From NCBI GenBank assembly GCA_963817955.1, contig CAWFQK010000002.1, positions 800,001 to 864,000 of the forward strand: a DNA stretch of 64,000 nucleotides, written 5' to 3'. Every line of letters begins with the position of its first letter. Position 1 is the stretch's first letter. Positions 6,703 to 53,185 of this stretch are shown piece after piece. The translations under genes and the position numbers were made by a program. This stretch comes from an uncultured Gemmatimonadaceae bacterium (lineage in GTDB: Bacteria; Gemmatimonadota; Gemmatimonadetes; Gemmatimonadales; Gemmatimonadaceae). Below the pieces are notes generated by a model, which was not told where the DNA came from, did no database searches, and was given only the letters and a program-made list of their open reading frames with translations.

Positions 6703-7220
6703 GCGAAGGCCTGGCATCCTGGATGCCTGTCATCCTGAGCGCAGCGAAGGATCTCTGTGACCGATAGAACAGCTTTTGAACGCAGAGGTCGCAGAGAAAC
6801 TGCAGGAGAACTGCAGGAGAACTGCAAAAGAATACTGCAAAAGAGAACTGGAACAAAGGAAACTGCAAAGAGAGAACTGTAAGCGTACGGAAGAGGGAAG
6901 CGCGTATTGGTGGAATGAACTGTGGATGCCGAGCCCACACTCATTCCGCTTATATCGTTACTGATTCCGATCTGGGCGATACCATCGGAGCGTCACGACG
7001 GCATCAGCCAAGACATCCAGGCGAGACAATCATTCATGGTCCTCTGTAGTTCTCTTGCAGTTCTCTGCAGTTCTCCTGCAGTTTCTCTGCGACCTCTGCG
7101 TTCAAAAGCTGTTCTATCGGTCACAGAGATCCTTCGCTGCGCTCAGGATGACAGGCTTTCGCTCAGGATGACAGGCTTTCGCCCAGGATGACAGCTGCGC
7201 TCAGGATGACAGGCCTTCGC
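6703..7220. mobile_element. Family A palindromic element (REPIN/MITE-like), copy 1
   Basis: Perfect 92-bp inverted repeat 6725-6816 / 7065-7156; GAGAACTGCA-type microrepeats; core ~6880-7042 shared with copies 2-4; ~20-bp tandem CGCTCAGGATGACAGGCTTT units at 7140-7220. Confidence 0.85.
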
Positions 7221-7237
7221 TGTAGTTCAACCGTCTG

Positions 7238-8881
7238 TTAGCGGGTGACCGCCTCGGGCGTTGCCGGGAGCGGCAGGTGCAACGGCCTGTGGAGGAAGAA
7301 GCCCTGGACGAGGTGCACGCCAAGCGCCTTCACGGCCTCGAACTCCTCCGAGCGCTCGACGCCCTCGGCAATGACCTTGGCGCCATGATCGTTCGCGAAC
7401 CTCACCATCGTCTGCACGAGATTCTGTTTGATGAAATTCGTGTCGATGGCGTTGATGAGCGAGATATCGAGCTTGATGAAGTCCGGCTCCAGATTGGCAA
7501 TCGACCCCAGGCCGGCGTAGCCGCTGCCCGCGTCGTCCACGGCGAACCGAAAACCGCGCTCGCGGAAGATCATCAGCCGCTCGCGGAATTTGGGATAATC
7601 CTTGATCGCCGTCCGTTCGGTAATCTCGATGACGACGCGCTCGGGCTGCTTCACTTCATCTTCGTTGAACGCCGGATCACTGAAGTCGTGCGGGTCGACG
7701 TTCAGAAAGAGCAGCTCGTTCGGGCGCAATCGCGTGTCCATGCCTTCGATCGCGCGGGCGCGGCACAACCGGCTCAACTCCCATACGAGATCCGCCTCGG
7801 CCGCAACGTCAAACATTACTTCGGGACTGCGCAGACTGCGCATGACGCCGCGCGCCAGCGCTTCGTACCCGAAGATCTCGCGCGTTTCCGTGACGACGAT
7901 CGGGTGATAGTCCACGTACACGCCGCGATCGCGCAGACTGGAGCGCAAGTCCGCCACCCGCCGCGCACGCTCGCGCTCTTCGATCGATCGTGACGCGTTG
8001 GCTGCTTCGCGAATGCCGCGATAGATGAGACGTTCGACGCGGATCTTGGGATTGTAGTAGACGTGCGCCCGCCCCACGTAGATATCGAACAATGCGGCGA
8101 TGTCTTCGCCGTGCTGCGCCTCGATGCGCCCGCCCACATGTCGCTGCAGACGCGCCACCATTTCGGTGATCTCACTCTCCGTGGCGGCGGCCACGCCGGC
8201 CGCCGGCACGTGGAAGAAGATGAAATCGTCGTCGTTGGTGAAGCTCACCATGACCCGCGACGTGCTCAGTGCCGTATCGTCGAGAAACTCGCGCACCGCT
8301 GCCGCAGTCGTCTCGAGCACGGCGTCCAACTTTTCCCACCCGTAGATCTCCTCGATCTTCGAGTACCGCACGAAGTTCAGATAGAGCACGACGAGCTCGC
8401 CGCGCTCTTTGAACAGGTTCCGCGAACGCTCGATCATCACGGGCAGCGTCGGCAGACCGGTGAGCGAATCGTGGAGCATCTGCTCGTACTCCACACGGTC
8501 CACGTGATCGGCGGTCACTGGGGTCTGTGCCGGCGGTTGTCCGCGCCCGACCGCCGCGCGCACGCGTTGCGCGATCTCATCGCCCTCAGCGGGACACCGG
8601 TACCATTCCTCCGCTCTGAGCTCCACGGCACGGCGCCGCACGGTGTCGTCGGCGCATCCGACGATCACGGGAGTGCCACAGGCGTGCGCCCGCTCGATGA
8701 CGTCTCGCAGCAGCGACGGATCATCCGAAACGACGAGAACCGCACGCACACCGGCGCGAGTGCCGGTCACGTGCGCCAGATCGGCCGGGGCGACACGCTC
8801 AAGGCGCCATCCCTCCAGCTGTGCCATTGCTTCGTCGATCCCGGGCTGATCGGAATCCGTGAGCAGAATGGTCTCGCTCAC
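7238..8881 (-). CDS. EAL-domain c-di-GMP phosphodiesterase with degenerate receiver-like and degenerate GGDEF regions
   Basis: HDSLTGLP, FTNDDDF in the GGDEF position, YEALAR, EITE, AVDDAGSGY, IKLD, IAEGVE, VQGF. Confidence 0.9.
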   Translation of the reverse strand: MSETILLTDSDQPGIDEAMAQLEGWRLERVAPADLAHVTGTRAGVRAVLVVSDDPSLLRDVIERAHACGTPVIVGCADDTVRRRAVELRAEEWYRCPAEGDEIAQRVRAAVGRGQPPAQTPVTADHVDRVEYEQMLHDSLTGLPTLPVMIERSRNLFKERGELVVLYLNFVRYSKIEEIYGWEKLDAVLETTAAAVREFLDDTALSTSRVMVSFTNDDDFIFFHVPAAGVAAATESEITEMVARLQRHVGGRIEAQHGEDIAALFDIYVGRAHVYYNPKIRVERLIYRGIREAANASRSIEERERARRVADLRSSLRDRGVYVDYHPIVVTETREIFGYEALARGVMRSLRSPEVMFDVAAEADLVWELSRLCRARAIEGMDTRLRPNELLFLNVDPHDFSDPAFNEDEVKQPERVVIEITERTAIKDYPKFRERLMIFRERGFRFAVDDAGSGYAGLGSIANLEPDFIKLDISLINAIDTNFIKQNLVQTMVRFANDHGAKVIAEGVERSEEFEAVKALGVHLVQGFFLHRPLHLPLPATPEAVTR

Positions 8882-8900
8882 GCGAATCTCACTGGCGGGG

Positions 8901-9302
8901 TCACGAGGCCACGGCGCGCTGCATCGCGAGATTCCGCTCCACCGCCCTGGATAAGGTGGGCAGATCGAATGGCTTCTCGACGTAATCGTCGGCGCCGAAC
9001 TGCAGCGCCTCGCGCTTGTCCTGCCAGTCGTCCAGTGCCGTCACCATGATGATGCGCACCGTACGGCCGAGGGTGGGATGCTGTTTCATCACACGGCAGA
9101 CCTCCCAGCCGTCGCGGCCCGGCATCATCACGTCGAGCAACACGAGCACCGGTCGCACCGTCTCGAACAGCGCGAGCGCTTCGTCGCCACTGTGCGCCAC
9201 CGTAACGGGATAGCCGCGGAGTTCGAGATATTGGCGGATGATCTCGGCGTTGTCGTAGTTGTCATCGACCACCAGAATTGGAGGTTTCGCTACAGGAGTC
9301 AT
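8901..9302 (-). CDS. Single-domain response regulator
   Basis: ILVVDD, LLDVMMPGRDG, IIMVTA, GADDYVEKPF. Confidence 0.92.
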   Translation of the reverse strand: MTPVAKPPILVVDDNYDNAEIIRQYLELRGYPVTVAHSGDEALALFETVRPVLVLLDVMMPGRDGWEVCRVMKQHPTLGRTVRIIMVTALDDWQDKREALQFGADDYVEKPFDLPTLSRAVERNLAMQRAVAS

Positions 9303-9384
9303 GGAACTGCCTGGTGTGCTCCGTTGATGCGGTGCACGCCCCAGCGCACACCATCGCATCTATAATGGGCAAATCACAAGCCAT

Positions 9385-10182
9385 CTACCGCTGCCCGAAG
9401 GCATAGGAGACACCCAGCGCGTACGCCGTGCCGCTCGGGCCACCCAATCCCTTGGCCCTCGTCGCGCCAAATTCGACACCTGCGGTGGCGCCCAGAGCGT
9501 TCGTGATGCCAACATCGGCGCCAATCGCCGCACGGAACAGCCCGCTCGTCTTGCTGCCACCAGAAAAGAAAACGTAGGTGGGCGTGGCATACACAGACAA
9601 CCCATGCGTGCCACCAAACGATTGGCGCCAACCCAATGCGGCCCCGATCGGAATCTCGGTGCTCGTCGAGCTGGAGTCGAAGGTGATCGTCCCGCTGGTT
9701 GCGCCTGCCGGAATCGCGCATCCTACCGTTGATGCAGTGCAGAGTATGGTCGTGTGGGATGTCCGCGCACTGCCGCCACCAATCCCGGCAAATCCCGCGA
9801 ACCCAAAGTTGCTCGTTGATCTACCGAAGGGAATGGCGACGCGGGCGCCATATACGCCGCGCGAACTGCCGATTCCGGTCTGATACCCTGCTCCACCACT
9901 GAGCTGAAATCGTCCGCCTCCGGGGGTATACGACACGGCCGCCGCATACACGGAGCCGTTCGCGCCACCGCCGACATTCAAGGCACCTACACTACCGGGT
10001 GTCGCCCAGGCATTCTGGAGAACGGGCAATCCGCTGATCTGGGCGTCGGCAGAGGCACCTGAGATTGCCCCGGCAGCAGCGGCGACGAGAGTTGCCCGCA
10101 GCAACCGGTGACCGAATGACTGAGATCGTCCGGCGCCTTGCAGGTAAGAAGAGAGGTGGTAGAGGTGATAGAGCTGGTACAT
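9385..10182 (-). CDS. Hypothetical exported / outer-membrane beta-barrel-like protein (start uncertain)
   Basis: Signal-like LLRATLVAAAAGAISGASADAQ, alternating beta-strand pattern, C-terminal ALGVSYAF. Confidence 0.6.
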   Translation of the reverse strand: MYQLYHLYHLSSYLQGAGRSQSFGHRLLRATLVAAAAGAISGASADAQISGLPVLQNAWATPGSVGALNVGGGANGSVYAAAVSYTPGGGRFQLSGGAGYQTGIGSSRGVYGARVAIPFGRSTSNFGFAGFAGIGGGSARTSHTTILCTASTVGCAIPAGATSGTITFDSSSTSTEIPIGAALGWRQSFGGTHGLSVYATPTYVFFSGGSKTSGLFRAAIGADVGITNALGATAGVEFGATRAKGLGGPSGTAYALGVSYAFGQR

Positions 10183-10354
10183 GGTTTCAGATCCGTGATC
10201 TCGGGTGAAACGCCGGAGCGCAAGCATCGTGCAAACCGAGCCGCTGAATCCACCAGTTCGCTGAGCCGTAAGTGGGCAGAGTACTACCTGACCCTTGACC
10301 AGCCCCGAAAAGGGCCACAACGTGATGGCCCCCACCATTTCTCCGAGGACACCT

Positions 10355-11128
10355 ATGCCGCAGGCACCTGTTCTGGCACTGCTAGCGGCTGCCGTCCTGT
10401 CCATGGGTGGCCGCCCCGCGGGAGCGCAGGCTCCGGGTCAGCCTGCGCGACCGAGCGCCGCGCTCGTCGGTTGGATACGCGATTCGCTCGGCGCGCCGAT
10501 CGATCGCGCTGATATTGGTGTGGAATTGAACAATGTGTGGGCGCGTACCGATTCGACCGGCCGGTTCAGACTGGGCAACCTCGTGCCCGGGAAGACGACG
10601 ATCATTGTGCGGCGGTTCGGTTTTGAGCCGCAGCACTTCGACTTCGAGCTGCACGCGTCGAGTGAGGATAGCGTCGCCGTGACGATGAACGCCTACGCAC
10701 ATACGCTTCCGGGCGTACGCACGGAAGAGGCGGTCACGCGCCAGCAGCAGGCACTGCAAGATTTCGATCGCCGTCGCGCGCACGGTGGGGGCCTGTTCGT
10801 GACGCGCGCCGATATCGAGCGGCATCAAACGAGCGTGTTGAGCGAGACGGTCCGCGAACTGCCCGGCGTGCGAATCGTACGCGGGGGTCGTTCGCGCTCG
10901 GGATTGCGCTTCGATTCGTCGAACTCGCGAGCCCACGATTGTCCGCCGCTATACTGGCTCGACGGACGTCACGTCACCGGAGTCGACATCGACGACTTTC
11001 CCGCCTGGGACGTGGAAGCGATCGAACTGTACACCGGCCCAGCGTCTACCCCAGCGCAGTTCTCGCTAGGGAACGTCGTGACATGCGGGACCGTGGTGAT
11101 CTGGACCCGGGTGCCGGGGAAGCCGTAA
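10355..11128 (+). CDS. Carboxypeptidase-regulatory-like domain plus TonB-receptor plug-like domain protein (no beta-barrel)
   Basis: RBS GAGGA; GWIRDSLGAPI, ARTDSTGRF, VRRFGF, PLYWLDG, DVEAIELY, CGTVVIWTR. Confidence 0.8.
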   Translation: MPQAPVLALLAAAVLSMGGRPAGAQAPGQPARPSAALVGWIRDSLGAPIDRADIGVELNNVWARTDSTGRFRLGNLVPGKTTIIVRRFGFEPQHFDFELHASSEDSVAVTMNAYAHTLPGVRTEEAVTRQQQALQDFDRRRAHGGGLFVTRADIERHQTSVLSETVRELPGVRIVRGGRSRSGLRFDSSNSRAHDCPPLYWLDGRHVTGVDIDDFPAWDVEAIELYTGPASTPAQFSLGNVVTCGTVVIWTRVPGKP

Positions 11129-11132
11129 GGGG

Positions 11133-12627
11133 GGGACACGGGTGTGAGACACGGGACACGGGACACGGGACAGGGGAAACTCACAACGCACAACTCACAA
11201 CTGGACACTCGGAACTCGCCGACCGGCGGGCCGACCGCGACGGAGCAGCCAGCGACATCCCGCCGGTCAACACCTGGAGTCCAATCCGATCGCCCAGGTC
11301 CTTCGCTCAGGAGGACAGGCCGTCGCGGGTAGCGTAATCAGTGGTGAGTTGTCAGTGGTGAGTTGTCAGTTGTCAGTATACAGGTCATGCGCACCAGGGC
11401 GCCTGGCTCGCAGGCCACTATCGCCGGTCGGCGAGGTTCGGGTGTCCAGTTGTGAGTCGTGAGTTGTGAGTTGTAAAAACGGACCCCGCGCGACCACCCT
11501 GCACAATTCTATTTCGCTGTGAACGCGACGCCCGACTCAATGTCACCGAACCTTCGCGGAGGGCAATAGGGCTGCCCGATCAATTCCTTCCCTTTCGCTC
11601 GGAATTGTCGCATCACGATGCAGTCTGGCGAGGTGGACGTCTCGGAATGTGGGCGATTGGTAAGCGGAATGAAGCCACCGCGCCCGATCCTGGCCCGCCG
11701 CGGGTGGCCGTTACTCGGCCGCGGCCAAGAGTAACGCTGCCGCGCGCGGTTCCCGAACGCGCCGCGGCCTTGATCCGTCATGTCGCGCTATCGATCTGCG
11801 TACCGCGCTATCGGTCCGCCATGGCGCGCTATAGATCTGCGTGCCGCGCTGTCGATCCGCATGCCGCGCGCAGGCCGCAGAACTCCGCGAGATGAAGTCG
11901 GCGTACCGCGCGAGCGGCGGCCGTGCCAATCCAAGTCGGTGGGGTAGGCGCAAGGACAGCCGGTGTTGCCGCGCGCGCCGGTCGGATGCCGCCGAAATTT
12001 GAGCCGTACCGCGCATGGCCCCCCACGCGCAAACGCTGTCCCCCGGCGCCCCGCGCCGGATGCGACCACGCCGCGAGTTGCGTCCGGCGCTCCGCCGTCG
12101 GAGGCCAGAAGCCGCGGCGAGAGCACGTTGCGCCGCGCCCGGGAGCCTGACGCCACGGCCGGTCGGTGCACCGGGGATTGGCCCCCGGGTGTTGACCGGC
12201 GGGATGTCGCTGGCTGCTCCATAGCGTTCGGCCCACCGGTCGGCGAGTTCCGCGTTTCCAGTGATGAGTGATGCGTTGTTAAAAACTCACAACTCACGAC
12301 TCACAATTGGGCACCCGAACCTCGCCGACCGGCGATAGTGGCCTGCGAGCCAGGCACCCTGGTGCGCATGACCCGTATACTGACAACTCACAACTCACCA
12401 CTGACAACTCACCACTGATTACGCTGCCCGCGACGGCCTGTCCTCCTGAGCGAAGGACCTGGGAGATCGGATTGGACTCTGGGTATTGACCGACTGGATG
12501 TCGCTGGCTGCTCCGTACCGGTCGGCCCACCGGTCGGCGAGTTCCGAGTGTCCAGTTGTGAGTTGTGCGTTGTGAGTGTCCCGTGTCCCGTGTCCCGTGT
12601 CCCAGGACCGTGTCTCGTGTCCCAGGA
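11133..12627. mobile_element. Family B composite non-coding island: two inverted ~295-bp units (11178-11472 and 12284-12577) capped by GACACGG heptamers, plus a partial third unit at 12175-12278
   Basis: 12284-12577 is the near-identical reverse complement of 11178-11472; each unit has its own ~33-bp terminal IR with CACAACT heptamer tandems. Confidence 0.85.
11763..11870. repeat. Degenerate 20-21 bp tandem repeat (CGCGCTATCGATCYGCRTRC-like), about 5 units
   Basis: CGCGCT(A/G) recurs at 11784, 11804, 11825 and 11845, with degenerate units at 11763 and 11865. Confidence 0.75.
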
Positions 12628-12642
12628 CAGTTGCCCCACGAC

Positions 12643-12671
12643 AAAAAAAAGAGCCCGCCGAAGCGGGCTCT
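12643..12671 (-). terminator. Intrinsic terminator of the SusC/SusD operon
   Basis: agagcccgc-cgaa-gcgggctct hairpin with A8 tract on + strand. Confidence 0.9.
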
Positions 12672-12697
12672 CTTTATTCACAACCTACTAACGTCGA

Positions 12698-13546
12698 TCA
12701 CATCCCGGCGGGCAGCATCGGGAAGTTGTCCTGCATCCATTTCACACCGGCCGTGGTGTTCGCCGCGGCAAGACTGCCAGTGACTGACGGCGGGAAGATG
12801 AATGCCGTCAACATGCTACCGGCGATCGAGTAGCCGCCGAGTGCGCTCTGCGACACCGAGGCGGGCGTGGCGCCGATTGGCGCTAGAGCCGTCGCAGACA
12901 CCGTGGTGGAACCATTGGGAGTCGCCGCAAACGTCAGCGAGCCAGTGGCGAGGAGCTTGTACGCCGAGCTAGTGCCGTACGCAACACCCGTAAAGAGCGG
13001 TGAGCCAGTCGCGGTGGCGAGCGGGTACACGTCAGCGCTGGTGATGGTCGGCGCAGCGTTGATGGCACGCACGGCGATCTGCGTGCTCGACCCGGCAGCC
13101 GAGCGATCGTCTGTGAGGACGATCAGACCCTGCTTCGGCGACGCACCGGTGCGCGAGTAGCCGGCGTGGATGATGGTGTAGTACACGCCCGCCTGGAACG
13201 TGAGCGTCGTGTCGACGAACGTCTGCGAGACGACGGTGATATCCGCTTCGTTTGCCGTGCCCGCGTCAACACGCGGATCCACGGAGAAGATGCGAATGTG
13301 ACGCGCACCAGCGGCAACTGGCTGATACGCCGAGATGTCACGGAAGGCGAGTTGGCCAAAGTACGGGGAGCCGGCCACCTGATCGACGAACCTGAAGTCC
13401 GTCTTGTTCGTGTCCGGAATGGCATTGATATAGCGGACGGAGGCAACCGCTCCGGGGCTGATCGTTGTCGGACCAGTATCGCCGCTTGTGCACGCCGCCA
13501 ATACCGAGCCGGCGACGGCCAGCAACGCGAGTCGCTGCAGTTTCAT
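12698..13546 (-). CDS. DUF4397-like domain lipoprotein
   Basis: RBS GGAG; lipobox LAAC; two repeats VRYINAIPD and VRAINAAP; YYTII. Confidence 0.8.
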   Translation of the reverse strand: MKLQRLALLAVAGSVLAACTSGDTGPTTISPGAVASVRYINAIPDTNKTDFRFVDQVAGSPYFGQLAFRDISAYQPVAAGARHIRIFSVDPRVDAGTANEADITVVSQTFVDTTLTFQAGVYYTIIHAGYSRTGASPKQGLIVLTDDRSAAGSSTQIAVRAINAAPTITSADVYPLATATGSPLFTGVAYGTSSAYKLLATGSLTFAATPNGSTTVSATALAPIGATPASVSQSALGGYSIAGSMLTAFIFPPSVTGSLAAANTTAGVKWMQDNFPMLPAGM

Positions 13547-13594
13547 ACTAGTGAACTCCACGAGAGAGTGATTCGAGAAGCGTAAAGACGTTTA

Positions 13595-14074
13595 TCACCA
13601 CGGCACCTTCGAGGTGGCGCCAATAGGAGTGCGTGACGTATCCGACGTCTGCTCTGTTGCACTACCGGTGAGCGTCCGAGTCAGCACGAACGCCGTGACA
13701 CCGGCGATCACTACTCCGGCAAACAACGCGGTCTTTCCGCGCGAGAACTGGCGTTGGCGCGAAGTCGCCACGTCGTTCACCGGAATGCTGACTCGTTCAC
13801 CTCCCCAGTAAGCCGTGCCACCACGGATCGTGGTGACCTGGCTGACGCCGAGGACGTACTGATCATTCGTGACCTGTTGCAGCGTTCCTTCGATCGTCAG
13901 GACGCCCGGGCCGAGCTGGTTACCCAGCGCTGCCCGGCCGGCATCGGTCAGATCCAACTCTACCGTCTGCCCGACCTCGGGGCGCGCTTCCGCAATCGGC
14001 TGATACGTGTAACAGCCAACCTGCAGCAGCATTAACGCCCCCAGAACCGCACCCGACGACCGACGCTGATTCAT
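13595..14074 (-). CDS. Hypothetical lipoprotein/membrane protein
   Basis: Start overlaps the SusD stop (TGATG); QVGCYTYQP, C-terminal hydrophobic helix. Confidence 0.75.
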   Translation of the reverse strand: MNQRRSSGAVLGALMLLQVGCYTYQPIAEARPEVGQTVELDLTDAGRAALGNQLGPGVLTIEGTLQQVTNDQYVLGVSQVTTIRGGTAYWGGERVSIPVNDVATSRQRQFSRGKTALFAGVVIAGVTAFVLTRTLTGSATEQTSDTSRTPIGATSKVPW

Positions 14075-15744
14075 CAGAATCCGTACGTGCCCTTTGCTGC
14101 GGCAGACTGCCCGCCGACGCCACCGAGGTTGTAGAAAGCCTGGGCACGCGTATCCATTTCCTGATACGGTACCGGCCACTCGAGCGCCGTGCCTTCCGCC
14201 AGGTCACCCCAGCCGCGGGCATCGAAGTACCACTGCGCGTAACCGGTGTACGCCGTCTCCATTCGCTTCTCCCACTTCATCGTCTCCATGATGGCACCGC
14301 ACACGGTGACGTTCCCAGCGCTCGTCGGAACGCGCGGCACACACGCACTACCAGTGTTGCCACCGTCCGCCTGGGCGAGGACTGCAGGCAAGCCTGCCTT
14401 CTGGCGAGACTTGTTGATCAGCGCCGCGGCGGTAGCGAAATCACCCTTTCGGATGGAGCCCTCGGCCGCGAGCATGTCGTTCTCCACCTTGGAGAACTCG
14501 ATCCACGGACCGACGCCGTTGTTGTCGTAAATCGCTTTGAAGCGGAAGAAATCGTAGTACGACGATCCCCACGGGTCACCCGGCGGGTCTGCGCTCGTAC
14601 GGTTCCGCATGTACGGGTACGCCGTGTAAGTCCAGGTCGACGGCGAGGCCGCCTGCTGAGCAGTACGCGTTTCGCCGCTTGGGAAGCGCTTGTCCGGCGT
14701 CTTGATGAGGAACATGGGACGAGCCCCGAGCGGCTGCGCCACCCAGTTTGTGTAGCCGCCCGATGTGTCGGCCATGCCGAAGATCATCGGCGTTATCTCG
14801 CTCCATCCCGAGGCGTTCGACGCAAACATCTGCGAGCCGAGCCAGCTCAGCGACCAGCCGGCCGAGCTGTTGATCGTCACCGCGAGATCCGTCTGGATGC
14901 CGGCGGTCGCGTCGGCGATCACTGAGGTCCAATCCACCGCGGCGCGTTCGGCAGGCGTGCGCGCCACCCCGGCGCGGAAACGCGCCTTGAACGAATGAAT
15001 CAGCGCGACGAACTGCGCCTGGCTGTACGTGCCGCTCGCCAGATTGATGTAATTGGCCGGGAGCGGGAAGCCCGCGGTCGCCTTGGCGTCCGAGGCGAGC
15101 GCGAGCGCCGTGTCCAACGACGCGAGCGCTGCCTTCATGACGTCTCCGTGTGCGCTCAGCAGCGGAATTGCGTCACCCGGCGTGGCCGGCGTGGTGATCG
15201 CGGCTGAGTCGTACGTCATCGCAAGGTAGCCAAGCGAAAGGCCGTTCTCGAAGAATGCGAACGAGCGTGCGCGCTGGTCCTGCGCCGGAAGCAGCGTTGC
15301 GTCGGAAATGTTGCCGGTGGGGCTGCCAAGGTGGAGGCCCGCACCAGTCAGCTTGTCCAGCGCCTGTACGTAGTTTGCCGAGTACCGCGCCTGCTGCGCC
15401 ATCTTGCTGAAGTCGCGGTTGTCTTCGGCATAGGTGAAGTTGTTGCGGCTGTTGTCAACGAACCCGCGTGGCAGCGCCTCGCGGAGCGCCATGCCGAAGT
15501 TCGCCACCGTGGCGTAGTTCTCGAAAGCGACTGCTTGGAGCTGCGGATCCAGGGCCGACGAGGTTCCAAACAGACCCCCGTGGATCTGTGCGAAGCCTGT
15601 CGCGATCAGCTGATCCAGCACGGCCGGCGTGGAATAGGAGCGCGCGATGTCCGGAGAGTTGTTGTTCGGAACATTGAGCGAATCCTTGCACGCGGTCGAT
15701 GCTAGCGCAGCTGCGCAAGCAAGCCCGGTTACCAACTTTCTCAT
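14074..15744 (-). CDS. RagB/SusD-like nutrient uptake outer-membrane lipoprotein
   Basis: RBS AGAGGA; lipobox STAC; ENDMLAAEG..AAALINKSRQKAGL; WEKRME..YFDARGWG; WPVPYQE; follows SusC. Confidence 0.88.
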   Translation of the reverse strand: MRKLVTGLACAAALASTACKDSLNVPNNNSPDIARSYSTPAVLDQLIATGFAQIHGGLFGTSSALDPQLQAVAFENYATVANFGMALREALPRGFVDNSRNNFTYAEDNRDFSKMAQQARYSANYVQALDKLTGAGLHLGSPTGNISDATLLPAQDQRARSFAFFENGLSLGYLAMTYDSAAITTPATPGDAIPLLSAHGDVMKAALASLDTALALASDAKATAGFPLPANYINLASGTYSQAQFVALIHSFKARFRAGVARTPAERAAVDWTSVIADATAGIQTDLAVTINSSAGWSLSWLGSQMFASNASGWSEITPMIFGMADTSGGYTNWVAQPLGARPMFLIKTPDKRFPSGETRTAQQAASPSTWTYTAYPYMRNRTSADPPGDPWGSSYYDFFRFKAIYDNNGVGPWIEFSKVENDMLAAEGSIRKGDFATAAALINKSRQKAGLPAVLAQADGGNTGSACVPRVPTSAGNVTVCGAIMETMKWEKRMETAYTGYAQWYFDARGWGDLAEGTALEWPVPYQEMDTRAQAFYNLGGVGGQSAAAKGTYGF

Positions 15745-27062: not shown

Positions 27063-27224
27063 GGGCGCGAAACGGGATTCGGGACATCAGGATCGACGCG
27101 AGTCACGCGACACGCGACGTCCCCGTTTCAGAAATGTGATCTTGAACGGCGGTCGTGGCTAGGGCGATGGTCACGGTGGGTATACGAAAGAAGAGTCTTC
27201 GGGGAAATGAGTGGGCGAATTGCT

Positions 27225-27630
27225 TGTCATCCTGAGCGACGGCCTGTCATTCTGAGCGAAGCGAAGGATCTCGGTGACCAGTTGAACAGCTTTTAACGCA
27301 GAGGTCGCAGAGCACTGCAAGAGGACGCAGAGAACTGCAGAGAACTATAAGGACCGTGAAGGATTCTCTCGCCTGGAAGTCTTGGCTGACGCCCTCGTGA
27401 CGCTCGGATGGTATCGCCCAGGTCGGGATCATCAACGATATAGGCGGAGTGATTGTGGACTCGGCAATCACGGTTCATTCCACCTACACCCGCTTCCCTC
27501 TGCAGTTCTCTTGCAGTCCTCCTGCAGTTCTCCTGCAGTTCTCTGCGTCCTCTGCGTTAATAGCTGTTCAACTGGTCACCGAGATCCTTCGCTTCGCTCA
27601 GAATGACAGGCCGTCGCTCAGGATGACAGC
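27225..27630. mobile_element. Family A palindromic element, copy 2 (core inverted relative to copy 1)
   Basis: ~80-bp IR 27225-27304 / 27549-27628 with 1 mismatch; core ~27351-27500. Confidence 0.85.
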
Positions 27631-27663
27631 CGCTTCGCCCACCTATTTCCGCGAGGACCCCCG

Positions 27664-27717: not shown

Positions 27718-28605
27718 TTACGCGGCGAAGCTGCCCAGCGCGCGACCGACGTCGCCCTCGCGGAGGCGCTTGAGTGCGCGGTCGCGAAGCTGGCGGACGC
27801 GTTCCCGCGTGACGCCGAGCATCGAGCCGATTTCCTCGAGTGTGTGCTCACGACCACCCTCGAGGCCGAAGTAGAGCCGAAGGACCTTTGCGTCGCGTGG
27901 CGGGAGCGTGCTGAGAGCCTGCTCGATCTCGTCGGTGAGGAACCGGTTCATGGCTTCCTCTTCGGTATCGGGCATCTCGTCGGCAACGAACCGCTCGATG
28001 AGCGACCGATCGCCTTCCGGATCCATTGGCGCGTCGAGGCGCACGTCGCTCGTGTTGAGCGCCGCGAGCGACTGCACGACGTCCACCGACAGACCGGTGA
28101 GCTGCGAGAGCTCCTCCGGGCTGGGCTCGCGATTCAGCTTCTGGCGCAGGATTTCCGACGCCTTGATGATTCTCGAAAGATCCGCAGTGCGGTTCAGTGG
28201 CACACGGACGGTGCGACCCTGGCGCGCCAGCGCCGACAGAATGGCCTGCCGAATCCACCATACGGCGTACGAAATGAACTTGACGCCCTGGTCGGGATCG
28301 AACTTCCTGGCAGCCGTCAACAAGCCGACGTTGCCCTCACCAATGAGATCGATGAGCGGCAATCCGCGGTTCTGATACTTTTTGGCAACGGAGATGACGA
28401 AACGCAGGTTGCGCTTGACGAGCTCCTGGAGGGCGTCTTGATCGCCAGCGCGAATCTTCTTCGCCAAGTCGATCTCTTCGGTTCCCTTGAGGAGGGGATA
28501 CGTGCTCACCTCGTAGAGGTACTGGTCGAGAATATCTCGCTCCGGTTCGTTCGGCGCGATTCCGGCTGGAGCCGCGCGGCGGCGACGGCGCTTGAGTTCG
28601 GTCAT
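27718..28605 (-). CDS. RNA polymerase sigma-70 factor, RpoD/SigA-like without region 1.1
   Basis: NLRFVISVAKKYQNRGL, DLIGEGNVGL, KFISYAVWWIRQAI, TLEEIGSMLGVTRERVRQ. Confidence 0.95.
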   Translation of the reverse strand: MTELKRRRRRAAPAGIAPNEPERDILDQYLYEVSTYPLLKGTEEIDLAKKIRAGDQDALQELVKRNLRFVISVAKKYQNRGLPLIDLIGEGNVGLLTAARKFDPDQGVKFISYAVWWIRQAILSALARQGRTVRVPLNRTADLSRIIKASEILRQKLNREPSPEELSQLTGLSVDVVQSLAALNTSDVRLDAPMDPEGDRSLIERFVADEMPDTEEEAMNRFLTDEIEQALSTLPPRDAKVLRLYFGLEGGREHTLEEIGSMLGVTRERVRQLRDRALKRLREGDVGRALGSFAA

Positions 28606-29200: not shown

Positions 29201-29202
29201 TT

Positions 29203-38164: not shown

Positions 38165-38201
38165 CCGAGGGCCGGACGGCTTGTTTTGCCGCAGACGGCG
38201 C

Positions 38202-38692
38202 AACAGCTTTTAACGCAGAGGTCGCAGAGAACTGCAAGAGGACGCAGAGAACTGCAAGAGAACTGCAGAGAACTGCAAAAGAGAACTGCAGAGAACTGCA
38301 AAAGAGAACTGCAGAGAACTGCAAAAGAGAACTGCAGAGAACTGCAAAAGAGAACTGCAGAGGAAAACTGTAAGCGTACGGAAAAGGGAAGCGGGTCTAG
38401 GTGGAATGAACCGTGATTGCCGAGTCCACAATCATTCCGCCTATATCGTTAATGATCCCGACCTGGCGATACCCTCGGAGCGTCACGACGGCTTCAGCCA
38501 AGACAGCTGCCAGGCGAGACAATCCTTTACGGTCCTCAGCAGTTCTCTGCGTTCTCCTGCAGCTCTCCTGCAGTTCTCTGCGTCCTCTTGCAGTTCTCTG
38601 CGACCTCTGCGTTAAAAGCTGTTCTGTCGGTCACCGAGATCCTTCGCTTGCGCTCAGGATGACAGCCCGTCGCTCAGGATGACAGCCCGTCG
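38202..38692. mobile_element. Family A palindromic element, copy 3 (left outer REP missing; expanded microrepeat)
   Basis: 55-bp IR 38202-38256 / 38569-38623; 23-bp tandem GAGAACTGCAGAGAACTGCAAAA units; core ~38371-38537. Confidence 0.85.
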
Positions 38693-38812
38693 ATCAGATC
38701 ACGATCTTCGCAGCCGCGTCACCGATTGCTGCGATTCACTCGTAGTGCAACAGTCCCGTAATGAGTGGATGCCGAGGTCGACCAGACCCCGGCGTCCACT
38801 CACCCTGGTTGT

Positions 38813-42610: not shown

Positions 42611-42624
42611 TCGGATCGCGCCCC

Positions 42625-44926: not shown

Positions 44927-44934
44927 CAATGAGG

Positions 44935-45193: not shown

Positions 45194-48170
<2,977 letters not shown>

Positions 48171-48280
48171 AACAATTGGTCAAGCAAAGCACTGCATTCC
48201 TACACTTCATCGATCAAGCACATGTGACGCGCGTTGCCGCGCCTCCCATCCGCTCTATCGATGAGGATTCACTTCCCACG

Positions 48281-48310
48281 ATCTACCTCAGACTTCACTT
48301 GTCAAACAGC
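48281..48310 (-). promoter_or_regulatory. rRNA boxA-like antitermination site and 5' half of the 23S processing stem
   Basis: Minus strand GCTGTTTGACAAG (48310-48298); 48281-48299 pairs with 45125-45143 (19 bp, one G-U). Confidence 0.8.
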
Positions 48311-48361
48311 GATTCTCGCGTGTCGAACGTGCGCGTGTGCGCCGTTCGGGGCGAGCCTTTC

Positions 48362-48390
48362 ATTTTATGGAAGGCTCTGTCGATTCTCAA
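48362..48390 (-). promoter_or_regulatory. sigma70 promoter of the stand-alone 23S-5S unit
   Basis: Minus strand TTGAGA-17 bp-TAAAAT. Confidence 0.8.
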
Positions 48391-48532
48391 GTGGCGCCGC
48401 GTGAATTCAGCAGCACTCAGCAACGAGCTTCGTTAGCGAGGGGCGATAAGGATATCTCGAATTCACGCGGAGATCAACCCCTGCACGCGATAGATTGGAC
48501 GGTTCCGTCTGACGTCGCAACCCGCCTCGAGT

Positions 48533-49705
48533 ATGCCGATGTACGACATCGCCGTCGTGTCCGCCAAAGGCGCCTACCGCTGGCAACACGGACATCCCTG
48601 GATCTACCGCAGCGACGTCACCCAGCGCCCCGCTGCGCCCGCAGGTGCCGTTCGCGTGCATGACCACCGCGGCAAACCGATCGGCCTCGCGCTCTGGAGT
48701 CCGTCATCGGAGATCTCGCTCCGCATGATCGACGATGATCCGCGCGCCGAACTGGACCACGCATGGTGGCGCGTTCGCATCGGCCACGCCCTCGACCGCC
48801 GCCAGCCGCTAATGGGCGTCGCATCCGCGTACCGGCTCATCCACGGCGAAGGCGATGCCTGTCCCTCCCTCATCTGCGACCGATACGACGCATGGCTCGT
48901 GGTGCAGTTGATGAGCGCGGGCCTCGAGGCATTTCGCGCACCGATCCTCGACGTCCTCGAGGACCTGCTGCAACCACGCGGCATTCTCGGGCGGAACGAC
49001 GTCGCGTTGCGCGCCAAGGAATCGCTCCCCGTCGGCGTCGAACTGCTGCGCGGCGAGGTGCCGCAGGAAATCGAGGTCCAGGAGCACGGCATCCGCTTTC
49101 TCGCTGCGCCCTGGCGCGGACAGAAGACGGGCGCCTTTCTCGACCAGCGCGAGAATCGGGTGCTCATCGGCGAACACGCACGCGGACGCGCACTCGACTG
49201 CTTCAGCTACCACGGCTCCTTCGCGCTGCACATGGCGAGGCGCGCCGAGTCGGTCATCGCCCTCGATGTCTCCGCCGACGCGCTGCGTCGTGCGGGCGAA
49301 AACTGCACCCGCAACGGCATCACGAACGTCGAGCTCGTGGAAGCAGACACGTTCGATTACCTGCGCGAGCAGCAAACCGCTGGTCAACGCTTCGACACGA
49401 TCGTCCTCGATCCACCGGCCTTCGCTAAGAACAAGGCATCGCTGCCCTCGGCGATTCGCGGGTACAAGGACATCAATCTGCGTGCGATGCGCCTGCTCGC
49501 GCCTGGTGGCCTGCTGTTCACCGCCAGTTGCAGCTTCCATCTCACGAAGCCGCTCTTTCTCGAAGTGCTGCAGGCGGCTGCCGCCGATTCGGGCCGTCGA
49601 ATGGTGCTGCGCGCGATCACCGGCCAGCCCCTCGATCACCCGGAGGTCATCTCGATTCCGGAAACGGGCTATTTGAAGGGGGCGCTCTTGGAGGCAATAG
49701 TGTGA
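48533..49705 (+). CDS. rlmI: RlmI/RlmK-like class I SAM-dependent rRNA methyltransferase
   Basis: GHPWIY, YRLIHGEGD, GQKTGAFLDQRENR, FDTIVLDPPAF, TASCS, YLK. Confidence 0.88.
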   Translation: MPMYDIAVVSAKGAYRWQHGHPWIYRSDVTQRPAAPAGAVRVHDHRGKPIGLALWSPSSEISLRMIDDDPRAELDHAWWRVRIGHALDRRQPLMGVASAYRLIHGEGDACPSLICDRYDAWLVVQLMSAGLEAFRAPILDVLEDLLQPRGILGRNDVALRAKESLPVGVELLRGEVPQEIEVQEHGIRFLAAPWRGQKTGAFLDQRENRVLIGEHARGRALDCFSYHGSFALHMARRAESVIALDVSADALRRAGENCTRNGITNVELVEADTFDYLREQQTAGQRFDTIVLDPPAFAKNKASLPSAIRGYKDINLRAMRLLAPGGLLFTASCSFHLTKPLFLEVLQAAAADSGRRMVLRAITGQPLDHPEVISIPETGYLKGALLEAIV

Positions 49706-50505
49706 TCGTGCTCGGCCCTGGCGCCTGAGACGTCGGCCTGACACACCGGACAGAAATACGTCGACCGACCGGCCTGCACGATGCGCTCGATGAGCGTGCG
49801 GCAGCGACGACAGGGCTTCCCTTCGCGATCGTACACGGAAAAGCGCGACACCGATTCATCCGTGTCGCGCGCCCCGCTCGCCTTGTCGATCACACGACGA
49901 ACCGCCTTGAGCAGCGCTGCCACCTGCCGTATCGTCAGCGACGATGACGGCGCCGTGGGCGCGATGCGAGCGTGCCAGAGAGACTCGGCAGCGTAGATGT
50001 TTCCAAGCCCGGCAATGACACGCTGGTCGAGCAGTACGGGTTTGATCGGGCCGCGCTTCTTCGACAGCACAGCGTGTAGCGACGAGGGCGTGAGTGCGGG
50101 GTCGCTGGGTTCGGGACCGAGTCCAAGATCGAGTGGGACATGTGCCGGGTGCAGGTCGAGCGTGCTCAGCGCGCGCGGATCCTCGAGCACGACGCGCGAG
50201 CCGTCCGTGAAGGTGATCGACGCACGTGCGAATCGCGGCAGTTCGTCATCGGCTCTGCCGATGACCCAGTCGCCCGTCATGCGAAAGTGCACGTGTAGCC
50301 GGCGACCATTGTCCAGAACGAGCAGCTGATGCTTGCCGCGGCGCTCGACGGCGAGCACCCGCACCTGGCGAAGCGAGCGAAGCCGCGCCGGCGACAGCCG
50401 CCGGCGAAGCGCTGGATGGAGCAGCTCCACGCGCGCCACCGTGCGGCCGACCGCGACTGCGCGCAGACGGCGGGCGGCGCGCTCGACCTCGGGTAACTCG
50501 GGCAT
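49669..50505 (-). CDS. mutM: Formamidopyrimidine-DNA glycosylase / AP lyase
   Basis: MPELPEVE, RRGK, HFRMTG, LLDQRVIAGLGNIYA, zinc finger CRRC..RSTYFCPVCQ. Confidence 0.97.
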   Translation of the reverse strand: MPELPEVERAARRLRAVAVGRTVARVELLHPALRRRLSPARLRSLRQVRVLAVERRGKHQLLVLDNGRRLHVHFRMTGDWVIGRADDELPRFARASITFTDGSRVVLEDPRALSTLDLHPAHVPLDLGLGPEPSDPALTPSSLHAVLSKKRGPIKPVLLDQRVIAGLGNIYAAESLWHARIAPTAPSSSLTIRQVAALLKAVRRVIDKASGARDTDESVSRFSVYDREGKPCRRCRTLIERIVQAGRSTYFCPVCQADVSGARAEHDHTIASKSAPFK

Positions 50506-50560
50506 TGGAATTCGTTCGAGGAGGTTGACCGACGCTTCTGCTACTAGGCAAGTTGCACCC

Positions 50561-51466
50561 GTGCCTTCCTCGACTCAATCCGCCGCGGCGCGCCGACGGC
50601 AAGTGCGCGACGCAGGGTCACCGGCGGTACGCCGAACGTTGTCAGTGGTCCTGGCGCTCAACGTCATCGTCGCGCTGGTCAAGCTCGGCGTCGGCGCCAA
50701 GACTGGTGCGCTCACGGTGCTCGGCGCCGCGCTCGAGTCCGGCCTCGACATGTTCAACAACGCAATTGGGATGATGCTCGTGGCGGTCGCCGGACGCGCG
50801 CCCGACGATGACCATCCGTACGGGCACGACAAGTTCGAGACCCTTGGCGCGCTTGCCATCGTCGGATTCCTGTCCATCTCCTGCTTCGAGCTGCTGCGCG
50901 AAGGCATCGGCGCGCTCCTCGCGAAGCGCGCGCCGCATCACGTCGACAGCGCGGATCTCGTGATCATTGCCTGCACGCTCGTCGTCAATGTGTTTGTCGT
51001 ATGGTACGAGCGGCGGCGGGGCCGGGCACTCGGTAGCGCGTTCCTGCTCGCCGACGCTGCACATACGAGCGGCGACATTCTCGTCACCATACTCGCGCTC
51101 ACGTCGCTGGCGTTGTCGCACGTCGCCGGGCCATGGCTGGATGCCGCTCTTGGCATTGGCGTGGCACTGATCATCGCCTGGAGCGGAATTAAGATCCTGC
51201 GCGAATCGATCCCGATCCTCGTAGATGAGCGCGCGATCGACGCCGACGAGTTGCGCGGCGCCGTGCTGCGCGTGCCGGATATTGGCGATGTGCGCAATGT
51301 GCGGTCGCGCTTTACGGCGTCGGGACAGCTCTTCGCTGAAGTCACGATCGTCGTCCACGGCGGCACACCGGTGGACGAAGCGCACCGACTCGCCGACGCG
51401 GTCGAAGCAGCAATCGAGCGTGAGTTCGGCGCATCGCAGGTGACGGTGCACGTCGAACCCGCGTGA
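50561..51466 (+). CDS. Cation diffusion facilitator family transporter (start uncertain)
   Basis: PDDDHPYGHDKFE, LLADAAHTSGD, AHRLA, VTVHVEP. Confidence 0.92.
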   Translation: MPSSTQSAAARRRQVRDAGSPAVRRTLSVVLALNVIVALVKLGVGAKTGALTVLGAALESGLDMFNNAIGMMLVAVAGRAPDDDHPYGHDKFETLGALAIVGFLSISCFELLREGIGALLAKRAPHHVDSADLVIIACTLVVNVFVVWYERRRGRALGSAFLLADAAHTSGDILVTILALTSLALSHVAGPWLDAALGIGVALIIAWSGIKILRESIPILVDERAIDADELRGAVLRVPDIGDVRNVRSRFTASGQLFAEVTIVVHGGTPVDEAHRLADAVEAAIEREFGASQVTVHVEPA

Positions 51467-51525
51467 GTACTTGCGTGTCGTGAACGGACGTCTAGCTTAC
51501 GCGCATTCTTTCACCGCTCCGAGGC

Positions 51526-52308
51526 ATGACGAATCGACCAACGCGCTCTCTCAAGCACGAGTACGAGCTGTTCGTCGAACAAGAGATTGAGAACTACAAG
51601 GAGTCGGTGCCGCGGAGCGTCATCCTCAGTATTGGGGATGAAGCGATGTCAGTACTTTCCGCCCAACCGCAGCTCGCGCTGACGGAGCTCCTCCTCTGCG
51701 ATGAAGTGGATCGCATCATCTTCAAGCGGCTGCGTCTTGCGACGTACGACACGTGGCGTCGCAAGTGGTTGAAATTGTCCGACGAGCGCCGCCGCCCTGA
51801 GCATTGGGGATTGAGTCCCGACGACGCGCTCGTTCGCGCACTCCCGACGTCCTCCGAGGGTCGAGTGCTATTGGCCGGCGCCGCGGACGAAAGACCGGCG
51901 TTGTATCTCGCGGCGAACGGCTGTGACGTCACGACGTTGGCGGGCGAGGAGGATGCGCTCGAACGCATGAGGCAGGCGGCGATCGGCGCCGGACTCGCCG
52001 GCCGCGTACATGCGCAGATAGGCAACCTGTCGTCGTGGACCCCCGACGTGCCACTCACTGCCGTCATCGTGAACCCCAGCGTTCTCGATGGGCTCTCCTC
52101 CGCGGAACGCGCACGCGTCATCGACATTCTGCAGAGCGCAACGATGGACGGCGGAATCCACCTCGTCCAAACGATCGTCGCCTCCAGTAATGCGACTGAC
52201 GCAATGTCACTCGAGGAACTGCGTAGTCAGTATCGCAACTGGACGGTGACGGTAGAACGAGCCCAGGACCGTTCGAAGACTTTCCTGGCGAGAAAGGGCG
52301 CTGCATGA
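51526..52308 (+). CDS. Hypothetical protein with degenerate SAM-methyltransferase-like C-terminal fold
   Basis: RBS GAGG; GRVLLAGAADERPALYLAANGCDVT resembles MTase motif I without GxG; ends FLARK. Confidence 0.7.
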   Translation: MTNRPTRSLKHEYELFVEQEIENYKESVPRSVILSIGDEAMSVLSAQPQLALTELLLCDEVDRIIFKRLRLATYDTWRRKWLKLSDERRRPEHWGLSPDDALVRALPTSSEGRVLLAGAADERPALYLAANGCDVTTLAGEEDALERMRQAAIGAGLAGRVHAQIGNLSSWTPDVPLTAVIVNPSVLDGLSSAERARVIDILQSATMDGGIHLVQTIVASSNATDAMSLEELRSQYRNWTVTVERAQDRSKTFLARKGAA

Positions 52309-52436
52309 CGACGTGTTAATTAGACACGTCCGTGTCAGTTCATTCTGTATTGGATCGACACAAACCAGCCAAACCGGCTGGTTGTTTCGTTTTGTAAGCA
52401 CTTTTGAGTAAACGACTTAACGCTTCCATTGCGCTA

Positions 52437-52452
52437 TGGCACCACCAGTGCA
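52437..52452 (+). promoter_or_regulatory. Candidate sigma54 -24/-12 promoter
   Basis: TGGCACCACCAGTGCA (GG-N10-GC), preceded by an AT-rich IHF-like site at 52395-52419. Confidence 0.6.
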
Positions 52453-52567
52453 AAATGGGGTGGCGCGACGGCAACCGGCCAGTCGTGAAAGTCGCTGGGC
52501 CCGTTGCGGCGGACCGTATCCCGCCGCCGGGCCACGCGAGTGACGGAATCAGAGATCAGCGACATAT

Positions 52568-52723
52568 ATGAAGGCAAAGGGAAAGAGCGGCTCGGACCAG
52601 GAGCCCATCGGCATCGTGATTTCGCGCGGAGCGCGTGGCGACCAGCGGCCCACGTTTTCTGCGTACGTGTGGGGACCGGCGCCAGAGGTTCCTGACGATG
52701 GGCGCGACGGCAAGATCGGATAG
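52568..52723 (+). CDS. Small hypothetical protein, 51 aa (MKAKGKSGSDQEPIGIVISRGARGDQRPTFSAYVWGPAPEVPDDGRDGKIG)
   Basis: Manually translated, below the ORF-track cutoff; lies between the candidate promoter and a terminator. Confidence 0.55.
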   Translation: MKAKGKSGSDQEPIGIVISRGARGDQRPTFSAYVWGPAPEVPDDGRDGKIG

Positions 52724-52755
52724 CCGCCCAGATCGAACACAGCAGCGTCGACAGC

Positions 52756-52797
52756 AGCGACGGCACTCTCAGTGAGTGGCGTCGCTTTTGTTTTTTT
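52756..52797 (+). terminator. Intrinsic terminator
   Basis: agcgacggcactc-tcagt-gagtggcgtcgct followed by TTTGTTTTTTT. Confidence 0.85.
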
Positions 52798-52810
52798 GCC
52801 CGTGACAGGT

Positions 52811-53185
52811 GACGGCCTGTCATCCTGAGCAAAGCGAAGGATCGCTGTGAACGGCGCACAGCCTTTTAACGCAGAGGTCGCAGAGAACTGCAAGAGGACG
52901 CAGAGAACTGCAGAGGACCGTGAAGGATTGTCTCGCCTGGAAGGCTTGGCGGATGCCGTCGTGACGCTCCGATGGTATCGCCCAGGTCGGGCTCATCAAC
53001 GATATAGGCGGAATGATTGTGGACTCGGCAATCACGGTTCATTCCACCGATACGCGCTTCTCTCTTCCGTACGCTTACAGTTTTCTTTTGCCGTTCTCTG
53101 CGCCCTCTGCAGTTCTCTGCAGTTCTCTGCGTTAAAGTTGTTCGACCGCCCAGAGAGATCCTCCGCTTTGCTCAGGATGAAAGGC
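52811..53185. mobile_element. Family A palindromic element, copy 4 (core inverted relative to copy 1)
   Basis: Outer CCTGTCATCCTGAGCAAAGCGAAGGATC / GATCCTCCGCTTTGCTCAGGATGA, inner TTTAACGCAGAG IR, core ~52913-53077. Confidence 0.85.

Follow-up and report, generated by a model that had tools for sequence, protein, structure and literature searches.

A dispersed palindromic repeat family in a Gemmatimonadaceae genome and its relationship to a GxxExxY nuclease cassette

The 64,000-nt stretch analysed here (contig C2:800001-864000, referred to as the window) belongs to the genome of an uncultured Gemmatimonadaceae bacterium (G000; assembly of 4.53 Mb in 9 contigs, 94% complete) and contains four copies of Family A, a dispersed repeat in which mirrored inverted arms enclose a core of ~170 nt. 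Analysis of the genome indicates that this core is almost certainly the deletion remnant of a GxxExxY nuclease gene, and that Family A as a whole is a gutted, non-autonomous derivative of a cassette carrying that gene; the fuller reading, in which the nuclease acts in trans, is somewhat more likely than not. That the family consists of inserted, mobile DNA is highly likely; that the nuclease is itself the mobilising enzyme has about even chances. The evidence points to an apparently undescribed kind of mobile DNA with a little-studied nuclease family as its engine.

Structure and copy number of Family A

An earlier note on this DNA, made from the letters of the window, had described four intergenic copies with a nested, mirrored layout and a common core, and all four are present when the sequences are read and aligned. 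On each side of the core lie 10-11-nt AACTGCA(R)AG repeats in variable number, followed by AACGCAGAGG.CGCAGAG and then by a linker, outside which there are mostly GCGAAGGATC..GTCATCCTGAGC units of the repetitive extragenic palindromic (REP) type, frequently as 20-nt tandem arrays. By repeat coverage the copies extend over ~6698-7241, 27190-27660, 38166-38755 and 52801-53192, somewhat wider than first described. The core does occur in both orientations: copies 1 and 3 have it on the + strand, copies 2 and 4 on the - strand, 'core +' being the strand opposite to the direction of the nuclease gene.

The four copies are far from alone: a blastn search of the whole genome with the 171-nt core of copy 3 (window 38375-38545) yields 52 high-scoring segment pairs and 42 loci of at least 125 nt at 82-100% identity, spread over 7 of the 9 contigs together with further core fragments. 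The 38 near-complete cores have a mean pairwise identity of 90.6%. The core is found in none of 40 relatives (24 genomes of the same genus and 16 of the same order), and an exact 23-nt core pattern has no match in metagenome contigs.

Where flanking genes could be called by a crude codon-bias method, the 3' end of a gene faces the element in 36 of 53 flanks, and the context is divergent in only 1 of 17 fully called cases. The statement that all window copies lie 3' of genes holds in part, as copy 2 lies 3' of one gene and also upstream of the next; copy 4 does sit between two terminator-like hairpins and copy 2 just beyond one, as read from the sequence.

Origin of the core

Two loci, C2:315996 and C2:764326, match the core only from position 29 on and contain ~320 extra bases between the left arm and that point. 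The extra region consists of open frames of 125 amino acids (C2:315678-316052 and C2:764008-764382) inside the same arms as those of Family A. The search proposed earlier for longer copies with the same arms around a nuclease open reading frame (ORF) thus succeeded, with two copies that carry an intact GxxExxY gene; the description of the family as lacking a transposase stands for the interior of the four window copies, whereas these two longer copies outside the window hold a nuclease gene.

Both ORFs match PF13366 (PDDEXK_3; E 1e-38; 132.3 and 129.7 bits against a cut-off of 22) and TIGR04256 (GxxExxY protein; E 4e-40 and 3e-39; 136.8 and 134.1 bits against a cut-off of 35), and both contain the GxxExxY motif together with the D..ExK catalytic residues; in an alignment of 21 family members G24, E27, D67, E77 and K79 are invariant and Y30 nearly so (at least 90%). 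The AlphaFold (AF2) model of the nuclease is confident (predicted local distance difference test, pLDDT, 94.8) and has a PD-(D/E)XK fold, with Cas4, alkaline exonuclease and lambda exonuclease as the nearest solved folds at modest scores (template-modelling score ~0.5). A PDB sequence search with the nuclease returned nothing at E up to 1, and searches of PADLOC and PHROGs gave marginal matches only. The two ORFs differ at 22 of 375 bases, with 17 synonymous and 5 non-synonymous changes (ratio of non-synonymous to synonymous rates, pN/pS, 0.10), a pattern that marks both genes as under purifying selection.

With the nuclease as query, tblastn finds just these two intact genes in the genome and ~40 short matches to residues 2-19, remnants of the form IINDIGGMIVDSAITVHS, one per Family A core. 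Read in the direction of the gene, the core comprises a leader of ~85 nt, the first 19 codons, in which the GTG start has mostly become GGG, and ~28 nt of what was formerly the sequence directly after the stop codon. Its origin as a gene remnant can be considered close to certain. The core is neither the end of a described insertion sequence (IS) nor an Rfam family, two identities that had been weighed for it, and it is the 5' part of a nuclease gene; its earlier description as a unique conserved element gives way to that of a decaying gene fragment with neither a sign of constraint nor an RNA-type pairing signal. Measured against the consensus, the three parts of the core diverge by 5.9%, 7.4% and 5.3%; a permutation test singles out no 15-nt window as unusually conserved (p 0.235), and the remnant itself appears free of constraint.

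Deletion classes

To locate breakpoints, the genome was aligned with the full-length element (801 nt, in gene orientation). Along this element the match stops at nt 305 for 39 loci and at nt 307 for a single further locus, and these 40 copies, sharing a breakpoint, therefore descend from a single deletion event. In a second class, B, the match stops at nt 231-232, 17 nt before the start codon, in 7 loci, and resumes in the last ~15 codons (..AQLKDGIIRMVNRLE); the joint region is present in 10 loci. The arms are identical in kind in full-length copies and derivatives, being terminal inverted repeats (TIRs) common to the parent. The tree built from the 38 near-complete cores has a star-like shape, 25 of its 34 inner branches being unresolved. 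The view of Family A as a non-autonomous family resembling miniature inverted-repeat transposable elements (MITEs) is borne out by the internal deletion of a gene-bearing parent, the one breakpoint in 40 copies, the lack of copies in 40 relatives and the short orthologous sites described below.

At C8:4668-6272 a 1.4-kb insert interrupts a Family A copy behind core position 86; it carries two overlapping ORFs and a slippery A-run, and its joints show a 4-nt core overlap. The insert reads like an IS3-family element, and as a candidate parent of Family A it was rejected, since it appears to be a secondary insertion of IS3 type.

Insertion sites

The convergent genes that flank copy 1 are neighbours in 21 of 29 congener loci, and the spacer between them, ~543 bp here, measures only -7 to 44 bp in 7 of the 21; in most of the remaining loci it contains different, unrelated microrepeat palindromes (loci L135-L152). 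The spacer acts as a recurrent landing site. The genes flanking copy 2 are neighbours in 23 of 24 other loci, with a spacer of 137-231 bp in 20 of the 23 against 659 bp here. The congener spacer holds a conserved terminator and an upstream motif, and removal of the element and one CGAAAGAA repeat from copy 2 leaves a sequence that resembles it. A comparison with empty sites in relatives, suggested at the outset, therefore gives short orthologous spacers in congeners for copies 1 and 2, or spacers holding other repeats. The two genes flanking copy 3 are not neighbours in any of 21 other loci.

No RNA run was listed as containing this DNA. Four DNA sequencing runs of one soil study provide short contigs, some of which match unique flanks without differences at a depth of 2-3. 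Very many soil metagenome contigs match the REP part only, joined across short loops; they represent other REP hairpins, and were for that reason rejected as an empty allele of an element site.

The cassette in other genomes

Matches to PF13366 number 2-9 per genome in all 24 same-genus genomes searched, and inverted repeats lie directly beside the gene in 10 of 19 same-genus loci (blastn-short). The nuclease has its nearest relatives on metagenome contigs (78% and 72% identity) and in a congener (71%), in simple cassettes built as TTTTTGACGCAGAGG..gene..CCTCTGCGTCAAAAA. Among species-representative genomes, a pattern scan found at least 602 confirmed relatives; the best 80 of these, at 48-64% identity, come from Bacteroidota, Cyanobacteria, Planctomycetota, Acidobacteriota, Chloroflexota, several proteobacterial classes and two archaeal lineages.

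Inverted repeats were scored by comparing the 250 nt upstream of the gene with the reverse-complemented 250 nt downstream, displaced windows serving as controls. Among 78 loci from many phyla, 69 exceed the 95th percentile of the controls, and a score of at least 20 is reached by 40 of 78 loci against 0 of 148 controls. The heptamer CRCRRAG occurs 1.68 and 1.81 times per 150-nt arm, compared with 0.094 times per control window (122 loci), and at least two such words stand in both arms at 48 of 122 loci but in 2 of 244 control windows. Their spacing is most often 9, 8 or 10 nt, and the outermost word is preceded by TT.A(C/A). The arrays of this genome read TTTTAC-CGCAGAC..AACGCAGAGG.CGCAGAG and continue into AACTGCAGAG repeats.

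Two further observations concern other genomes. Arms of the CGCAGAG type surround a palindromic interior of ~190 nt (..GCCGCTCGGGA..TCCCGAGCGGC..), with no nuclease remnant, in two other genomes (the congener G017, loci L164, L169 and L172; G001, locus L275), and one such hairpin occupies the spacer orthologous to that of window copy 2. In two cyanobacterial loci a match to the Rfam family 5_ureB_sRNA lies just upstream of the GxxExxY cassette (L062:976-1263 and L068:912-1201).

The function of PF13366 is listed as 'Unknown' (PMC3424549, in its accessible part). A literature search, with subscription journals outside its reach, found nothing on GxxExxY mobility (PMC8934634, for example, is not about mobility in its accessible text) and nothing related on the nuclease in combination with miniature inverted elements.

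Outer layers

The idea that the nested layers form one element is not borne out: several separate repeat families are stacked in the nested layout, and only the inner arms and core are shared by all copies. The GTCATCCTGAGC..GCGAAGGATC units of the outer layer are a separate, older repeat family; the pattern has 88 matches here and occurs in 14 of 24 same-genus and 6 of 8 sister-family genomes, and because congeners that lack the core carry REP units, this layer is independent of the cassette. In one REP variant both halves of the small stem are altered together (ATCCC..GGGAT), and the unit also occurs here in plain, cassette-free hairpins whose loops measure 8-11 nt. REP units lie at window positions 6725-6750, 7125-7215, 27225-27275 and 38636-38692; in the tandem units of copies 1 and 3, CGTC precedes GCTCAGGATGAC, and a GTAG or CGTC tag at the end of a REP is a published feature (PMC3733652, accessible part). 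A search for the gene of a REP-associated tyrosine transposase (RAYT; Y1_Tnp, PF01797) gave 0 matches in this 94%-complete genome, the control search being positive in 6 of 14 named genomes. Family A, for which a REPIN/MITE-like nature had been surmised, is not a REPIN (a pair of inverted REP units) in the strict sense.

Two further modules, absent from the earlier description, contribute to the outer layers. An asymmetric pair of ends, CTAACAGACTGTTGAA.. and ..CACTCGTAGTTCAACAGTCTGTTAG, closes as CTAACAGACTGTTGAA / TTCAACAGTCTGTTAG, and by itself forms a 133-bp element without cassette at C4:1672100-1672232; in the window this module lies at 38693-38755 and 7220-7240. Its right-end motif also stands alone beside gene stops at several loci, and in copy 1 the TTA of the motif is the stop codon of the gene at 7238-8881. 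The other module is an inverted repeat of GGGTCTTCGGGGAAATGAGTGGGCGAA type. No outer-end modules flanking an ORF were found in this genome. Some copies have a further mirrored outer layer of heptamer runs, GGGACAC / GTGTCCC (C7:44700-44760, C2:316180-316230).

Of the 42 copies, 13 carry REP units on both sides, 23 on one side only and 6 carry no scored module (REP or T ends), although one of these six, C7_118477, has a P-type module on its right. Two copies have the same core sequence in differing outer contexts. The linker is variable, yet the two arms of one copy are more similar (0.87) than arms of different copies (0.74; 12 copies from which both linkers could be extracted).

Proposed mechanism and alternatives

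In the mechanism that we favour, the starting point is the intact cassette, which consists of a 125-aa PD-(D/E)XK nuclease gene and its leader between inverted CRCRRAG-type arrays. One deletion removed the sequence from codon 20 to a few bases past the stop codon, and the gutted element multiplied to ~40 copies in this lineage, with a second deletion derivative reaching ~10 copies. The copies would have landed in intergenic DNA, mostly off promoters, and often inside or together with other palindromic repeats, namely REP-type hairpins and two kinds of module bounded by TIRs, which would explain their nested look; the 10-nt repeats would gain and lose units by slippage. The two intact genes would supply in trans a nuclease able to recognise the heptamer arrays and to cut at the ends, and new copies would arise through transposition-like insertion or through repair of the break by copying from another element. 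Both the supply in trans and the action of the nuclease on the arrays are suggested because gene and arrays travel together across phyla, because the arrays are the sole feature common to the parent and all derivatives, and because selection keeps the nuclease intact. The orientation of the core relative to the asymmetric outer ends is flipped in 1 of 12 copies, and the break-and-copy route would fit this rare flip, the lack of duplications, the variable shared flanks and the position of copies at palindrome centres. On a broader scale, we tentatively suggest, at somewhat less than even chances, that GxxExxY nucleases and phased CRCRRAG arrays constitute a distinct and widespread class of prokaryotic mobile element, in which the 125-aa nuclease would be the only protein, would recognise the arrays, would act in trans on gene-less or gutted copies, and would spread them by break-and-copy without duplication, favouring palindrome centres.

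Several points weigh against this account. The intact genes and the derivatives share only 75-85% DNA identity. A regular target-site duplication is lacking, as a TIR with an adjacent duplication is found in 3 of 42 copies compared with 7 of 208 mismatched controls, and the 8-bp duplication of copy 2 bounds the outer inverted repeat rather than the heptamer arms, so that at least one composite owes its arrival to an outer module inserted at a staggered cut, and copy 2 may have travelled as the passenger of another element. With 36 of 42 copies touching a REP unit or other outer module, copies may have hitch-hiked on these modules. We know of no strand-transfer activity for a 125-aa PD-(D/E)XK nuclease, and a further enzyme could be missing from a genome that is 94% complete. 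The case for movement is built from sequence comparison, and the star-like core tree cannot separate competing modes of spread.

The inverted repeat of GAGTCTTCGGGGAAATGAGTGGGCGAA type at the edges of copy 2 has the look of a TIR element in its own right, one that makes an 8-bp target duplication; modules of this type are also present at the edges of several other copies.

The rival that survives best regards the gutted cassette as inert, multiplied inside REP hairpins and CTAACAGACTGTTGAA-ended and GGGTCTTCGGGGAAATGAGTGGGCGAA-ended modules by other enzymes or by recombination between dispersed repeats. We consider it rather unlikely, though it is the most serious of the alternatives. It draws on the boundaries of copy 2, on the presence of at least one outer module in the 36 copies just mentioned, on the abundance of REP units here and in relatives, and on a core orientation relative to the asymmetric ends that is the same in all but one of 12 copies. 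Such a model has difficulty, however, with the 6 of 42 copies that carry no scored outer module (C7_118477, with its P-type module on the right, among them), with the identical cores in different outer contexts, and with outer types that do not cluster on the core tree, itself unresolved; moreover, neither an autonomous partner of any outer module nor a RAYT gene was found in this genome, and in other genomes the gene-bearing cassettes lie directly in intergenic DNA with no such layers.

A role for arms and nuclease in the host cell, in transcript processing, insulation or defence, with spread by gene conversion and slippage, is improbable. The avoidance of divergent promoter spacers (1 of 17 by the crude call), purifying selection on the nuclease and a weak Cas4-like PADLOC match (E 0.0017) would agree with it, but the core decays evenly with no conserved block (the permutation result given above), the family occurs in one genome of 41 searched, the sites are unoccupied in congeners, and no defence-system model matched above noise. 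Nor do the arms show any sign of selection for an RNA stem: across 126 loci, arm mismatches give G.U on the sense strand in 181 cases and on the antisense strand in 214 (p 0.11), with no excess on the sense side.

A family of structured non-coding RNA genes, with the arms as terminators or processing stems, is scarcely tenable, for although the core is ~170 nt long, conserved and flanked by hairpins, and a 10-bp helix can be drawn in it by eye (GGTGGAATGA with TCATTCCGCC), it aligns codon by codon to the beginning of a protein gene, diverges uniformly along its length, gives weak and unconvincing RNAalifold consensus folds on both strands (36 cores), and has no Rfam match at gathering score at any window copy, only sub-threshold noise (the best, 25.7 bits against a gathering score of 90, at copy 3). 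The Rfam search recommended by the earlier note returned rRNA and tRNA only over the whole window, and no family on the arms of 20 other cassette loci.

If the favoured mechanism is correct, it would account for intergenic hairpin repeats that annotation pipelines skip or translate as spurious peptides. GxxExxY/PF13366 is a very common family of small proteins, and the ~50 derivatives with datable gene scars beside intact, selected genes provide a parent-and-offspring record for it; what is new here is the link between parent and offspring through shared deletion joints, together with the burst of ~40 copies. A defined enzyme, defined ends and natural mini-elements make it possible to test directly whether the nuclease is the engine.

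Features of the window

The coordinates of the four copies and their parts are collected in Table 1. Beside copy 2, a 295-aa protein encoded at window 27718-28605 (-) is 99-100% identical across 23 congeners, compared with ~75-90% for neighbouring proteins. The window also contains a different intergenic family with multiple copies, GTCCTCCTGAGCGAAGGAC .. GGCTGCTCCGTAGCGGTCGGCCCACCGGTCGGCGAG, which has runs of CAACTGA/CAACTCA heptamers on its flanks (window 11290-11480 and 12380-12560) and recurs at C1:73530, C1:149620 and C4:1405900.

Table 1. Family A copies and their component parts in the window (window coordinates).
Feature	Position	Strand	Remarks and evidence
Copy 1, whole composite	6698..7241	.	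Fills the spacer of convergent genes 5415-6701 (+) and 7238-8881 (-)
Copy 1 core, GxxExxY gene remnant (5' leader and codons 1-19)	6884..7052	-	blastn; tblastn remnant ISNDISGMSVGSASTVHS; match to full-length element stops at nt 305
Copy 2, left 8-bp direct repeat CGAAAGAA	27185..27192	+	Read from sequence
Copy 2, whole composite	27193..27661	.	Imperfect ~27-bp inverted repeat (GAGTCTTCGGGGAAATGAGTGGGCGAA type) at edges; terminator on one side, upstream region of next gene on the other
Copy 2 core, gene remnant	27350..27499	+	blastn, tblastn, breakpoint alignment
Copy 2, right 8-bp direct repeat CGAAAGAA	27662..27669	+	Read from sequence
Copy 3, whole composite	38166..38755	.	Sequence, repeat coverage
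Copy 3, left inner arm	38184..38374	+	End motif TTTTGCCGCAGAC, then AACGCAGAGG, then long run of AACTGCA(R)AG (10-11 nt)
Copy 3 core, part 1: sequence once 3' of the ancestral stop codon, past the deletion joint	38375..38402	-	Common with class B 3' flank
Copy 3 core, part 2: GxxExxY codons 19 to 1	38403..38459	-	Start GTG now GGG
Copy 3 core, part 3: 5' leader of the gene	38460..38545	-	Retained in both deletion classes
Copy 3, right inner arm	38546..38613	+	Mirror of left arm, fewer repeats
Copy 3, outer REP-type units	38636..38692	+	GAGATCCTTCGC..GCTCAGGATGAC with 20-nt tandem
Copy 3, outermost right-end module	38693..38755	+	..GATCACGATCTTCGCAGCC..CACTCGTAGTGCAACAGTC
Copy 4, whole composite	52801..53192	.	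Between two terminator-like hairpins; sequence, repeat coverage
Copy 4 core, gene remnant	52905..53073	+	blastn, tblastn, breakpoint alignment

Comparison with known systems

Family A works like an IS with its MITEs, or like REP sequences with their RAYT genes, yet it departs from the definitions of both: no transposase of a known class, no regular duplication and no RAYT gene were found. As in IS and MITE families, there are few gene-bearing and many gutted copies with the same inverted ends, one deletion joint per class, intergenic insertions, a lineage-specific distribution and a burst-like star tree; unlike them, the Family A parent encodes a 125-aa PD-(D/E)XK nuclease rather than a DDE, HUH, serine or tyrosine transposase, and its ends are phased heptamer arrays rather than a single TIR, with no regular target duplication. 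REP sequences and REPINs are described as short palindromic intergenic repeats tied to RAYT genes of the Y1 HUH type (PMC3116915 and PMC3337134, in their accessible parts). Family A resembles them in its high copy number of short palindromic intergenic repeats, in its one or two small enzyme genes flanked by the repeats, in arms that co-vary within a copy, and in an outer layer where inverted REP units surround a spacer, on both sides in 13 of 42 copies; it differs in that no Y1 transposase was found here, the enzyme fold is another, and the derivatives, unlike REPINs, still include part of the enzyme gene.

Among systems of other kinds, BOX elements of Streptococcus pneumoniae and the bacterial interspersed mosaic elements (BIMEs) of enterobacteria are mosaics of intergenic repeat modules in which the number of internal units varies. 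Family A is likewise a modular mosaic with variable internal units, but it has a gene-bearing parent, and to our knowledge BOX elements and BIMEs have none. In the intervening sequences of 23S rRNA, a long stem holds a small ORF in its loop, an arrangement matched by the small ORF within the long inverted repeat of the cassette; Family A, in contrast, lies outside rRNA, and its arm mismatches have no RNA-type wobble bias.

Free-standing homing endonuclease genes include some of the PD-(D/E)XK type (I-Ssp6803I), and they have in common with the Family A parent that a small nuclease gene spreads as a selfish unit. They differ from Family A, which has no intron or intein context, occupies many unrelated targets, carries inverted arrays at both ends and includes gene-less derivatives that multiply. 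The break-and-copy route of homing endonucleases would nevertheless explain both the variable, co-transferred flanks of Family A and its insertion without target duplications.

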